Of a stretch of 32,000 bases of DNA, positions 8,888-14,988 are shown piece by piece (within the stretch, counting starts at the first letter, position 1; each line of letters begins with the position of its first letter). The position numbers and the translations under genes are program-made. This DNA is from Wolbachia endosymbiont of Drosophila innubila (GTDB lineage: Bacteria > Pseudomonadota > Alphaproteobacteria > Rickettsiales > Anaplasmataceae), in contig NZ_CP076228.1 in NCBI RefSeq assembly GCF_021378375.1, positions 240,001-272,000 on the forward strand. The letters run 5' to 3'. The notes beneath the pieces were generated by a model. The model did no database searches and was not told where the DNA came from. It worked only from the letters and a program-made list of their open reading frames with translations.

Positions 8888-8964
8888 CATAGAAGCCGAT
8901 TGGGTTTCATAAATGCAAGTCACTATTAATTTCTTGATTAATAGACTAAATGATGTTATAAATT

Positions 8965-9054
8965 ACACGCATTAGGGGTGCTCTAGAAAAGCTGAGAGTA
9001 CATAAAGTACAACCCTTTGAACCTGATATTGTTAAAGCAAGCGTAGGAAAATGT
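8965..9054 (+). promoter_or_regulatory. TPP (thiamine pyrophosphate) riboswitch / THI-box
   Basis: All conserved THI-box blocks are present in order: GGGGTGC (8975-8981), CTGAGA (8992-8997), ACCCTTTGAACCTGAT (9012-9026) and GCGTAGG (9041-9047). A putative P1 pairs 8965-8973 with 9050-9058 (8 of 9 pairs including one G-U), covering the AGGAAAA SD-like stretch and the ATG at 9055. Confidence 0.87.
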
Positions 9055-9330
9055 ATGTATATAAATATTGAAGAATGCTTCGGCTTCATTGCGTTAATTG
9101 CATCTCTAATTGGATTATCACCTCAAGTATATAAAGCATATATCACTAAAGTTACTCGTGATGTATCGATGTTAATGTTAGTAAACTATCTTATTTGTTC
9201 ATTGTCTTGGATTGGCTATGGTCTTTACCAGAGCTCAATTTTTGTGGTGCTTAGCAATATTGCTGGATTAGTGATTAGCATAATATCAATTATTCAAAAA
9301 TGTTACTACGATGCAAAACCTGCACCATGA
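9055..9330 (+). CDS. PQ-loop / semiSWEET-like 3-TM mini-transporter (candidate thiamine importer)
   Basis: 91 aa with three predicted TM helices and a PQ motif in TM1 (LSPQVYKAY). This size and topology fit bacterial semiSWEETs. The start codon lies inside the riboswitch expression platform. Confidence 0.78.
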   Translation: MYINIEECFGFIALIASLIGLSPQVYKAYITKVTRDVSMLMLVNYLICSLSWIGYGLYQSSIFVVLSNIAGLVISIISIIQKCYYDAKPAP

Positions 9331-10003
9331 TCATGTGCTGCACTGCAGTACACAACAACAATATCGTTCTATTGTAGTGCTAAATGGAAAAATACCGAGC
9401 TCATCGTTTTTTAAACGAGATATACCTATTATTGCTGTAGATGGAGGAGCAAACAAGCTTCTATCAATTGGCGTAAAACCTGATCTTGTAGTAGGAGATT
9501 TGGATAGCGTAAATCTGGATTTACGTGCTAATTTGAATACGATATATCTACCTGATCAAGATTATTGCGACTTTTCTAAAGCAATGGCTCACTTAAAAAC
9601 AGTAAAGTTATTGCCATCAATAGTAACGGGTATTACTGGAGGAGCAATTGATCACATACTACAGAATATTAACATTTTTCTAAGTACGGGCAGTATCTTT
9701 TACACACCTTCACCTCCCATGGTAGGTTACACTTTACAAAAAGGTATTACCCATTTTTTTTCTTTGCCAAAAAATACTAAAATATCTTTACTTGGTATAC
9801 CGAGAGCTCAAATATCAACTAAAGGATTAAAATGGGAACTGCACCTTAGTAATCTTGCTTTTCCGGGAAAAAATTCTTGCTTTAATCGAAGTTTAGGCAA
9901 TAAGGTATCCGTAGAAGTACACAGTGGTATATGTCTAGCAATGATTTATTTAGAGACAGTAGATGATGCTGCAAGACATCATGTGCGTCAAGTTAAGAAG
10001 TAA
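9311..10003 (+). CDS. thiN: Thiamine pyrophosphokinase
   Basis: TPK catalytic-domain motifs IIAVDGGANKL ... VVGDLDS, followed by a thiamine-binding-type C-terminal domain. Overlaps the upstream transporter ORF by 20 nt, consistent with an operon. Confidence 0.85.
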   Translation: MQNLHHDHVLHCSTQQQYRSIVVLNGKIPSSSFFKRDIPIIAVDGGANKLLSIGVKPDLVVGDLDSVNLDLRANLNTIYLPDQDYCDFSKAMAHLKTVKLLPSIVTGITGGAIDHILQNINIFLSTGSIFYTPSPPMVGYTLQKGITHFFSLPKNTKISLLGIPRAQISTKGLKWELHLSNLAFPGKNSCFNRSLGNKVSVEVHSGICLAMIYLETVDDAARHHVRQVKK

Positions 10004-10811
10004 ATAGACTTCTTGCATAACCCAAACTAAGTAGAAAAAGGTATCATCCAAGTAGCTGACACTGGTTCCTTTATGACGTGTCATTCCAATTCCAGCTACT
10101 TGAATGACAGCAGTCCTACGTCATACCGCCGCGGTATCTCTTAGCCGCTAACAAGCAGCGGGATGACGAATTACTTAACCATCATTACACCGTCATACCG
10201 CGATTCATTCGCGGTATCTCTTAACATAGATCCCCTACTATACCTTAACATAGATCCCGCTAACACGTAGCGGGATGACGATTGTCGTTTAGCTATAAAC
10301 ATTAAGAAATTTACCAAATGAAAAAAAAGGCAAAAGAAGCCCTGGGGTTATTATCTGCTTTAAAATATTGGCGTTTTTTATGTTTTAAACGCTTGACAAG
10401 CAAGATTAAGCTGCTTTTAATTGCAACTAACTTACGCTGCAAATGTTTAAGAAGTTTACTAAGCAGAAAAAAAGACAAAGAATCCCCGAGTTAGCTAGTC
10501 TTTTACTATCTCTGTCGAGTATTGGCATTTTTTGATGTCTTGTAACGCTTTATAAGCGCGTTCAGCTTATTTAGATAAAAATCTAGATGTAGATGAAGTT
10601 TTGTAAAGACATACAGTATCTATATACTGCAAAAAATTGAACATGAGACGCCGATACATTAAGTAATCCTTACCTTTTAATCTGCAGATTGGCGAAAGCA
10701 AATACAATAGCTTCAATTTTATGATAAGGGGGCTGGCGGAGTTTGTCAAGCAAGTTTTTTCGTTTCTACTGAATGACAGTTGTGGCTTGGGAGGTAGTGC
10801 AAGAAGTCTAT
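10004..10811. repeat. Composite 808-bp non-coding repeat element (copy A), bounded by 14-bp perfect terminal inverted repeats and packed with nested palindromic elements
   Basis: ATAGACTTCTTGCA at 10004-10017 and its exact reverse complement at 10798-10811. Interior carries 'cgtcat..atgacg' double-hairpin units (10119-10168, 10191-10280), a 'ccagctact/agtagctg' unit (10044-10110) and an internal partial duplication (about 10325-10400 vs about 10470-10570). Large parts recur inverted at 14291-14740. Confidence 0.85.
10721..10749 (-). promoter_or_regulatory. Repeat-borne sigma70-type promoter (TTGACA-17 nt-TATCAT), firing leftward
   Basis: On the minus strand: TTGACA (10749-10744), a 17-nt spacer, then TATCAT (10726-10721). 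The identical module is in copy B. Confidence 0.55.
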
Positions 10812-10935
10812 TGTATTACTGAATTATTAATAATCTAGTAATAGTGCCTGCTATGTAGCTAAAATTTTCCTTTAACTTAAGCTATATGTAGCTAAAATAA
10901 CTTGGGTTTACCGACGATTTGACAAACGACAAATT

Positions 10936-10986
10936 CGTCATCCCGCTACTTGTTAGCGGGATCTAGAGATATCGCAGCGGTATGAC
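10936..10986 (+). repeat. Double-hairpin palindromic element (Wolbachia/Rickettsia palindromic-element-like)
   Basis: cgtcatcccgctacttgttagcgggatctagagatatcgcagcggtatgac. Two stem-loops (atcccgcta/tagcgggat and atatcgc/gcggtat) are enclosed by cgtcat/atgac. Lies 38 bp upstream of the mcd ATG. Confidence 0.85.
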
Positions 10987-11023
10987 CCTGACTTGCATTA
11001 GCTATGTATAATAAAGGGAATCT

Positions 11024-14290: not shown

Positions 14291-14740
14291 TCTTAAAAGA
14301 CTTCTTGTATAGTTTTTGGCAACAACCGTTAGAAACGAAAAAACTTACTTGACAAACTCCGCCAGCCCCCTTATCATGAAACTGAAGCTATTTATTTATC
14401 TTCTCTGTACAGATTAAATGACAAAAAAACTCACGTATCTGGCGTCTCATGTTTAATTTTTTGCACTATGTGCACCTTATGTCTTTATAAAACTTCTACC
14501 TACATAAGCTGAAACGCGCTTATAAAGCGTTTAAAACATAAAAAAACGCCAACTTAAAAAATGGATAGTGAATAACTAGCTACCCTAGGGTTTCTTTTGC
14601 CTTTTTTTTATTTGGTAAATTTCTTAATGTTTATGGCTAAACGACAACCGTCATCCCGCTACTTGTTAGCGGCTGAGATACCGCGGCGGTATGACGTAGG
14701 ACTGCTGTCATCCCAGTGCTTGACACTGGGATCCAGTTGA
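14291..14740. repeat. Composite repeat element (copy B), inverted relative to copy A
   Basis: The reverse complement of 14331-14390, 14480-14560 and 14590-14734 aligns with 10709-10770, 10540-10660 and 10100-10330 of copy A. It includes the double-hairpin unit 14649-14696 and the palindrome gtcatcccagtgcttgacactgggatcc (14707-14734). Confidence 0.85.
14349..14377 (+). promoter_or_regulatory. Repeat-borne sigma70-type promoter (TTGACA-17 nt-TATCAT), firing rightward
   Basis: TTGACA at 14349-14354, a 17-nt spacer, TATCAT at 14372-14377. Same module as in copy A, in the opposite orientation. Confidence 0.55.
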
Positions 14741-14988
14741 GCTATTTCAACAAAAATACTGCATTTGAGATGAACGTTCCAGACTTATTTATAAATATAA
14801 CAATTAAAGTCTGGATTCCAGCGTCAAGCACTGGAATAATATCGTTTACTATGTCTATATTACAATATTTGTGCAGTTGTGTGTCAACTACTTTTGTGGC
14901 ACCGTTTGTTATTCAATCTTTATGCTAGTTTTACTAAAAATTATAGTATTTTAGGTATAATTGCAATATCTAAATTTAAGGTATAGAG

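Follow-up and report, generated by a model that had tools for sequence, protein, structure and literature searches.

A TPP riboswitch, a SemiSWEET protein and a thiamine pyrophosphokinase as a putative minimal thiamine salvage module in Wolbachia and other, mostly host-associated bacteria

The structures of bacterial SemiSWEETs are well characterised, yet hardly anything has been established about what these proteins do in the cell (Jia et al. 2018, PMC5972207). In a 32,000-nucleotide stretch of the genome of the Wolbachia endosymbiont of Drosophila innubila (contig NZ_CP076228.1, positions 240,001 to 272,000 of the forward strand; hereafter the window, with positions counted from its first letter), a gene for a 91-amino-acid SemiSWEET protein stands between a thiamine pyrophosphate (TPP) riboswitch and a gene for a thiamine pyrophosphokinase (TPK), which raises the question of what this small membrane protein carries. 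An initial annotation of the same DNA had interpreted it as a thiamine importer, and the analysis presented here supports that interpretation: the locus is probably a two-gene thiamine salvage operon, in which a facilitator and a kinase would import and trap the vitamin under TPP feedback. We establish what each of the three parts is, that they are conserved in this arrangement, and that the aptamer shows covariation. The parts of the module in the window are the following.

8964 to 9066, plus strand: TPP riboswitch aptamer (THI element), full length, identified by RF00059, its motifs and covariation
9055 to 9330, plus strand: 91-amino-acid SemiSWEET/PQ-loop membrane protein with three transmembrane helices, the proposed thiamine facilitator, identified by Pfam, phmmer against the PDB, AlphaFold2 and Foldseek
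9311 to 10003, plus strand: thiamine pyrophosphokinase of the TPK/ThiN type, 230 amino acids, identified by TIGR01378, PF04263 and PF04265
9311 to 9330, plus strand: 20-nt stretch shared by the end of the SemiSWEET gene and the beginning of the TPK gene, read in different frames, taken from the list of open reading frames (ORFs)

The Rfam search returned a significant RF00059 match at 8964-9066 on the plus strand, which covers the whole model (positions 1-105 of 105) and lies above the gathering score (74.1 bits against 54.3, E 4.8e-13). The THI-box motifs GGGGTGC, CTGAGA, ACCCTTTGAACCTGAT and GCGTAGG, as listed in the initial annotation, are all found in the window sequence; the box had been placed 5 nt before the ATG, whereas GCGTAGG actually ends at 9047, 7 nt before it. 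Among 13 orthologous aptamers, the CUGAGA of the pyrimidine-sensor arm and AACCUGAU vary little or not at all, and CG.AGG, which like ACCUGAU is a motif of the pyrophosphate-sensor arm, does not vary. CUGAGA, ACCUGAU and CG.AGG are all present in the window.

The protein encoded directly after the aptamer matches the Pfam models PF04193 (PQ-loop, 33 bits, cutoff 22) and PF03083 (MtN3_slv, 32.6 bits, cutoff 23.7), and phmmer aligns it with solved SemiSWEET chains of the PDB at about 1e-8 and 24-34% identity. The AlphaFold2 model, obtained with a 51-sequence alignment, is confident (predicted local distance difference test, pLDDT, 91.7), with helices at residues 5-31, 39-59 and 62-87, and superposes on SemiSWEET crystal structures, in agreement with the three-helix PQ-motif protein that had been predicted. 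In particular, the top 14 Foldseek matches in the PDB are all SemiSWEETs, the best being 4rng_A (TM-scores 0.85/0.94, root mean square deviation 1.0 Å). The PQ hinge of the first helix (P23-Q24) shows no variation, nor does W52, and N68 is conserved to at least 90%; in the solved chains 4qnc, 4rng and 4x5m, W52 and N68 have a conserved Trp and a conserved Asn as their aligned counterparts. At four positions (N44, Y45, S49 and S67) the clade has polar residues of its own where these three solved sugar SemiSWEETs have hydrophobic residues or Ala, and three of the four, N44, Y45 and S49 in the second helix, share the helical face of the pocket residue Trp52. It is possible to see in these replacements a weak, suggestive hint of an altered specificity.

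Pfam and NCBIfam scans of the 91-amino-acid protein matched SemiSWEET-type models only, and the NCBIfam SemiSWEET subfamilies (NF037967-9) all scored below cutoff (SemiSWEET_2 41.6/80, SemiSWEET_3 24.1/100, SemiSWEET_1 16.5/200); judged by these scores, the clade falls outside the curated subfamilies. By the same scans and the transporter list of Sun et al. 2013 (PMC3766115), the protein is not homologous to ThiT, PnuT, ThiBPQ, ThiXYZ, YkoCDEF, CytX, ThiU, ThiW or omp_thi. As regards the Pnu family, no NMN_transporter match appeared in the Pfam scan (E up to 1) and no Pnu protein among the top 50 Foldseek matches in the PDB; with three transmembrane helices only, against the architecture of about seven helices of Pnu proteins, the protein is not a member of that family. 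Its closest relatives are from Wolbachia of Drosophila and other insects, and the cluster of 98%-identical proteins to which it belongs (P0002) has 49 member sequences.

The product of the downstream gene exceeds the cutoff of the thiamine diphosphokinase equivalog TIGR01378 (167.1 bits against 76.4) and those of the catalytic domain PF04263 (66.8 bits) and the B1-binding domain PF04265 (23.2 bits), and it contains the VDGGAN and VGDLDS motifs from which the initial annotation had recognised a TPK. The 20-nt overlap with the SemiSWEET frame was likewise given correctly, provided that the ATG at 9311 is the TPK start; an alternative GTG start at 9335, 4 nt past the SemiSWEET stop, would leave a 4-nt gap. 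Given the overlapping frames, translational coupling of the two genes is probable.

Whether this arrangement is an accident of one genome was addressed by comparing related loci, of which 19 came from a pattern-plus-tblastn search (one genome per species), 10 from exact look-ups of diverse homologs and 53 from a metagenome scan with an alignment of intermediate diversity (A4). The resulting 82 loci (numbered with the prefix L below) were reduced to 70 non-redundant groups, 65 of which are at least 40% identical to the 91-amino-acid protein. Within these 65, TPK lies directly downstream of the SemiSWEET gene in 61 of the 64 assessable groups, and an RF00059 match at or above the gathering score lies directly upstream in 36, with sub-threshold or decayed aptamers in 7 more. 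The reading frames of SemiSWEET and TPK overlap in 62 of 69 loci. Furthermore, a custom covariance model built from 13 aptamers gave 55 matches in 343 kb, all on the coding strand and immediately upstream of SemiSWEET. The five groups below 40% identity (L019 and L079-L082) have neither TPK nor aptamer adjacent.

The taxa concerned are Wolbachia, Rickettsia/Tisiphia, other Rickettsiales, Holosporales, a Puniceicoccales metagenome-assembled genome (MAG), Legionella/Fluoribacter (with the gene pair in L. wadsworthii, Fluoribacter gormanii and Legionella sp. PATHC038), Gammaproteobacteria MAGs and many metagenomic lineages; overall, dozens of lineages carry the trio, most of them host-associated. 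The flanking genes vary between lineages, so it is the three-part module itself that is conserved as a unit. The initial annotation had proposed a check of synteny across Wolbachia and Anaplasmataceae: the arrangement is kept far beyond Wolbachia, whereas other Anaplasmataceae are not among the named hits of these non-exhaustive searches. Thus, the three computable points on which that annotation could have failed, namely the RF00059 score, the SemiSWEET fold and the synteny, all came out in its favour.

Some features of single loci were noticed in the same survey. The SemiSWEET proteins of Wolbachia and Rickettsia/Tisiphia (L004, L005 and L012) are 78-80% identical and the adjacent TPKs 47-60%, a gap that points to strong constraint on the membrane protein or, alternatively, to horizontal transfer and a mosaic history. 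In L041 (2588-2729), TPK is followed after about 200 nt by a TwoAYGGAY RNA (RF01731, 55.1 bits), and in L078 (2567-3228), again after about 200 nt, by the start of a 16S rRNA gene. In the riboswitch-less loci L011 (2868-2956) and L016 (411-497), from a Holosporales MAG and the Puniceicoccales MAG, a tRNA gene stands immediately upstream of the pair; on its opposite strand it also produces a false 'Plastid-psbl-rps4' match, which stays below threshold.

In one lineage the two proteins are naturally fused. The fusion protein (P0044, 319 amino acids) has an N-terminal PQ-loop/MtN3 domain followed by the catalytic and B1-binding domains of TPK, and is encoded at 3001-3960 of L028/L029, in an ankyrin-repeat-rich bacterium that is probably intracellular. 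An assembly artefact was considered and rejected, the identical 319-residue ORF being present on contigs from independent ENA and JGI samples. The fusion locus has no riboswitch, and its start overlaps an upstream yceG-like gene by 4 nt. The kinase is joined to the C-terminal end of the SemiSWEET part, an end that faces the cytoplasm in the topology known for SemiSWEETs. In the window protein, the positively charged segments are loop 1 (KAYITKVTRD) and the C-terminus, a distribution that would accord with the positive-inside rule. Another protein, P0104 (267 amino acids), is seemingly an N-terminally truncated second example of such a fusion.

It could be argued that the window encodes an ordinary sugar facilitator in an incidental position, or a membrane protein that transports nothing and serves as an anchor or regulator of TPK. 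All named database members are in fact called 'SemiSWEET family sugar transporter', PQ-loop or MtN3, and the Trp/Asn pair of the pocket is conserved; these names, however, are homology-derived, and incidental linkage can explain neither the recurrence of the trio across Alpha- and Gammaproteobacteria and metagenomic lineages with unrelated flanks, nor the fusion, nor the restriction of TPK and aptamer to this clade, while a pure anchor would not need an invariant PQ hinge and pocket residues. We regard this explanation as very improbable. Three independent kinds of genomic evidence, the riboswitch, the overlapping TPK operon and the natural fusion, point to thiamine rather than sugar, and thiamine import is strengthened by the fusion, by the overlap of the frames in 62 of 69 loci and by the absence of TPK and riboswitch beside the five distant SemiSWEETs. 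On balance it is likely, on this genomic evidence, that a distinct clade of SemiSWEETs, found mostly in intracellular and host-associated bacteria (Wolbachia, Rickettsia/Tisiphia, Holosporales, Legionellales and others), takes a vitamin and not a sugar as its physiological substrate, and works with TPK, to which it is sometimes fused, as a minimal import-and-trap system.

A vitamin-related cargo other than thiamine has also to be weighed, such as hydroxyethylthiazole (HET), hydroxymethylpyrimidine (HMP), a thiamine analogue or thiamine monophosphate processed in the periplasm, and the same holds for export. The SemiSWEETs with solved structures are facilitators of the uniporter type, which impose no direction on transport, and the precursor transporters CytX, ThiW and ThiU of the list of Sun et al. 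2013 are likewise under TPP riboswitches. We consider this unlikely, since the invariant partner TPK takes thiamine itself as substrate (TIGR01378), no ThiD, ThiM or ThiE gene, as needed for precursor salvage, stands beside the pair in the loci with listed neighbours, the fusion makes sense only if the cargo is the kinase substrate, and repression by TPP suits an importer and not an exporter.

For the thiamine salvage operon, the following mechanism can be hypothesized. SemiSWEET would pass thiamine across the inner membrane, probably as a homodimer by analogy with the solved SemiSWEETs, which act as homodimers. The co-translated cytoplasmic TPK would convert thiamine to TPP in one step, a reaction that would supply the cofactor and also trap the substrate, pulling further uptake. 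When abundant, TPP would bind the aptamer of the 5' leader, and the folding of the latter, with P4 engaging a Shine-Dalgarno (SD)-like AGG and P1 overlapping or abutting the start codon, would block the initiation of SemiSWEET translation; TPK would be co-regulated by coupling, its frame overlapping the end of the SemiSWEET gene. The thiamine substrate, the import direction, the dimeric state, the SD role of the AGG, control of translation and not of transcription, and the translational coupling are what we infer. The leader elements on which the regulatory part depends are listed below.

8934 to 8962, plus strand: possible sigma-70 promoter read by eye, with TTGATT at 8934-8939, a 17-nt spacer and the extended -10 element TGtTATAAA at 8954-8962
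8969 to 8973, plus strand: 5' strand of the P1 helix, GCAUU, from the Rfam structure line and the minimum free energy (MFE) fold
9045 to 9048, plus strand: SD-like AGGA with a putative SD role, its AGG being the 3' strand of the P4 helix and pairing with CCU at 9024-9026
9050 to 9059, plus strand: 3' strand of the P1 helix, AAUGU at 9050-9054 with an extension at 9056-9059, overlapping the SemiSWEET AUG at 9055-9057

In the Rfam structure, the core of P1 consists of 5 bp (8969-8973 with 9050-9054), and beyond a C8968·A9055 mismatch an extension pairs 8964-8967 with 9056-9059, which the MFE fold includes. The P1 helix of the initial annotation (8965-8973 with 9050-9058) exists in the MFE fold with this one mismatch and covers the AUG at 9055-9057. 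The same annotation had P1 bury both the start codon and the SD-like AGGAAAA: this stands for the AUG, less certainly if transcription starts near 8969, while the AGG belongs to a strand of P4. The CCU/AGG pairs of P4 are invariant in 13 of 13 sequences and present in 35-36 of 36 in a larger ortholog set, and the AGG may serve as the SD element. No intrinsic terminator or terminator-like hairpin was found between aptamer and ORF, and transcription attenuation was rejected for the window on this account.

The candidate promoter plausibly abuts the aptamer, with a transcription start predicted near 8969. Its sequence is kept upstream of the aptamer in the Wolbachia locus L003 and nearly so in L006; a strict consensus scan did not report 8934-8962, whose -10 hexamer has no T at position 6. 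If this promoter is real, a start near 8969 leaves only the 5-bp core P1 in the RNA, ending 1 nt before the AUG. The position of the promoter would leave the proposed mechanism unchanged, and the statement that P1 buries the start codon becomes less certain for this strain.

The 3' strand of P1 carries a 4-nt unit twice in tandem (ATGTATGT, 9051-9058), and with it two ATGs. The first, at 9051, lies in another frame than SemiSWEET and begins a mini-ORF of six codons (MYVYKY, stop at 9069-9071); the second, at 9055, starts SemiSWEET. In the Rickettsia endosymbiont locus L004, which has no duplication, the first ATG is the SemiSWEET start. Through the duplication, the start codon may have been displaced by 4 nt and so have left the core P1.

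The structure of the aptamer is corroborated by comparison of its orthologs. In an alignment of 36 of them, which was fitted to the model and so favours the structure, 93.6% of the pair cells are paired, against 33-54% when the partners are slid by 1-3 columns, and compensatory changes on both sides occur in 13 of 22 pairs, including all 7 pairs of P1. RNAalifold, applied to an independent MAFFT alignment, recovered the same canonical TPP fold. In 33 of 35 orthologous loci, the start codon, chosen heuristically, shares nucleotides with the P1 3' strand; in the remaining two, no more than 3 nt separate them. Across the 35 loci, the P4 AGG stops 2-9 nt short of the inferred start. A leader so compact, in which the start codon overlaps P1, argues that the aptamer doubles as the expression platform, and this platform-less layout is, as judged from the compared sequences, a conserved property of the riboswitch–gene pairing and not an accident of the window. 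One variant of the aptamer was noticed in L009 (1523-1715; the same in L031 and L073), where the Rfam match extends over 193 nt (59.1 bits) with an insertion of about 90 nt in the variable P3.

Several observations weigh against a thiamine salvage operon under TPP feedback. The canonical sugar-pocket pair W52/N68 is retained, and the sequence of the protein, taken alone, is compatible with a sugar substrate. About 20 of the 65 groups of the clade have TPK and no detectable riboswitch, and regulation by TPP is thus not universal. In the window itself, a transcription start near 8969 would preclude the extended P1 over the AUG, and by its MFE the leader is not significantly more stable than shuffled versions of itself (z = -1.4); in an RNA this AT-rich, stability by itself is uninformative, and covariation was relied on instead. 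Finally, the module is often decayed in Wolbachia strains, which argues against its indispensability for the genus.

The decay affects all three parts. The aptamers of L002 (2919-3012, 32.6 bits) and L007 (2920-3012, 28.7 bits) are degenerate: both read CCGAUA in place of CUGAGA and have lost part of the ACCCUUUG segment. SemiSWEET has a premature stop in L007 (3001-3156) and is broken after residue 76 in L006 (3001-3597), where it continues into transposase-like sequence; in L008 (3257-3304) SemiSWEET is intact and only 19 residues of the adjacent TPK survive, and in L018 (3001-3433) only remnants of both genes are left. Several database SemiSWEET entries are fragments of 51-83 amino acids. 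With several Wolbachia strains in which it is decayed, and with no other Anaplasmataceae among the named hits, the module is not a general requirement of endosymbionts.

From such degenerate aptamers and truncated or deleted genes in related Wolbachia, and from the relaxed selection that is common in endosymbiont genomes, one could suppose that the aptamer of the present strain is itself a relic, with genes that are constitutive or barely expressed and a module heading to loss. This is distinctly unlikely for the window, whose aptamer scores as high as any surveyed (74.1 bits with Rfam and 108.5 bits with the custom covariance model R1) and retains every conserved ligand-contact motif, whose two ORFs are intact and full length, and whose SemiSWEET belongs to the 49-member cluster P0002.

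How far the proposed operon resembles known systems can be judged first from the pnuT–tnr3 operons of Bacteroides and other Bacteroidetes, in which PnuT and a thiamine pyrophosphokinase are controlled by a TPP riboswitch (Costliow & Degnan 2017, PMC5613172; Sun et al. 2013, PMC3766115). As in the window, a TPP aptamer precedes a small inner-membrane facilitator that is not ATP-driven, with TPK directly downstream. Different from the window, PnuT has about 190 amino acids and seven transmembrane helices, against the 91 amino acids and three helices of the SemiSWEET, and the module described here has no outer-membrane TonB-dependent partner; moreover, its two genes overlap, being fused in one lineage, and the predicted ribosome-binding region lies inside the aptamer. 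In the PnuC/NadR paradigm, substrate phosphorylation drives uptake, and by this analogy uptake in a pnuT–tnr3-like logic is presumably phosphorylation-driven as well.

The solved SemiSWEET facilitators (4QNC/5UHS, 4RNG, 4X5M/4X5N, 4QND and 9KAX) share the triple-helix bundle, the PQ hinge and the Trp/Asn pair with the window protein, whose context, in contrast, is thiamine-specific (TPP riboswitch and TPK) and not carbohydrate-related. As for the regulatory layout, the SAM-II, SAM-III/SMK box and preQ1-II riboswitches have aptamers that directly contain the ribosome-binding site, and in them, too, there is no separate platform and ligand-induced folding of the aptamer hides the SD or the start codon. 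The aptamer of the window is different in being of the ordinary TPP class, with the P4 AGG as the SD-like element and the P1 3' strand as the start-codon mask.

The novelty of the finding is limited to some of its components. The adjacency of a TPK gene and a SemiSWEET had been remarked in Legionella cherrii (Jia et al. 2018, Front Genet 9:180); the genes are the same, but the remark concerns one genome, with no riboswitch, fusion, survey, clade definition or proposal of thiamine transport. In Legionella the TPP riboswitch has been described as controlling the biosynthetic thi operon and not the SemiSWEET–TPK pair (Sahr et al. 2017). The 19 TPP-regulated transporter orthologs listed by Sun et al. 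2013 include no MtN3, SWEET or PQ-loop entry, and this, together with literature searches that came back empty, agrees with the statement of the initial annotation that the classical riboswitch-linked thiamine transporters comprise no PQ-loop/semiSWEET protein. In the full-text literature, most subscription journals and TCDB lying outside the coverage, no description was found of a SemiSWEET, PQ-loop or MtN3 protein together with thiamine or a riboswitch, and none of relevance for Wolbachia and a TPP riboswitch; the genome papers of wMel and wBm do not mention thiamine. That the assignment might be undescribed is upheld for the thiamine role, which was not found in the full-text literature covered, and not for the TPK neighbour, already noted by Jia et al. 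2018, while the term 'new transporter class' was an overstatement, as the family is already known and only the substrate assignment is new. The component families and the operon logic of riboswitch, transporter and TPK are known, the combination of this transporter family with this substrate appears to be new, and no new principle is introduced.

The surroundings of the module in the window contain genes unrelated to thiamine, with an M23 peptidase and an SPFH protein upstream and, downstream of TPK, a repeat-rich spacer followed by malonyl-CoA decarboxylase. The spacer (10003-10990) is dense with nested inverted repeats, namely 31-nt arms at 10251-10281/10935-10965 (97% complementary) and further arm pairs at 10145-10172/10932-10959, 10120-10141/10965-10986 and 10003-10022/10793-10812, and it also holds short direct repeats of a GC-rich palindrome (CCGCTAAC...GCGGGATGACGA); by these repeats it looks like a miniature inverted-repeat transposable element (MITE) or a cluster of Wolbachia palindromic elements. 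Farther downstream, the Wolbachia small RNA 46 (WsnRNA46, RF02625) matches at 14686-14859 (68.6 bits against a gathering score of 65.3). The same family is found near the SemiSWEET locus elsewhere in Wolbachia, in L003 (4391-4534, 80.3 bits) and, below threshold, in L008 (1042-1181, 43 bits).

If the proposed function is true, a bacterial SemiSWEET would for the first time be assigned a physiological function, and for the first time a substrate other than a sugar, and the substrate range of the smallest known transporter fold would reach a cationic vitamin. The protein would be a half-size functional counterpart of the SWEET-like thiamine transporter PnuT, and would provide a functional bridge between the SemiSWEET/SWEET and the Pnu vitamin transporters. 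Hundreds of database annotations would then be wrong. At the level of regulation, it would represent a platform-less TPP riboswitch, in which conserved aptamer nucleotides double as ribosome-binding site and start-codon mask. No thiamine transporter was found in classical Rickettsia (Driscoll et al. 2017), and the SemiSWEET would be a concrete candidate for a missing step in the metabolism of obligate intracellular bacteria and a candidate answer to how some Rickettsiales acquire TPP. The module may also be of use as a target or marker in Wolbachia-based vector control and in anti-filarial work.

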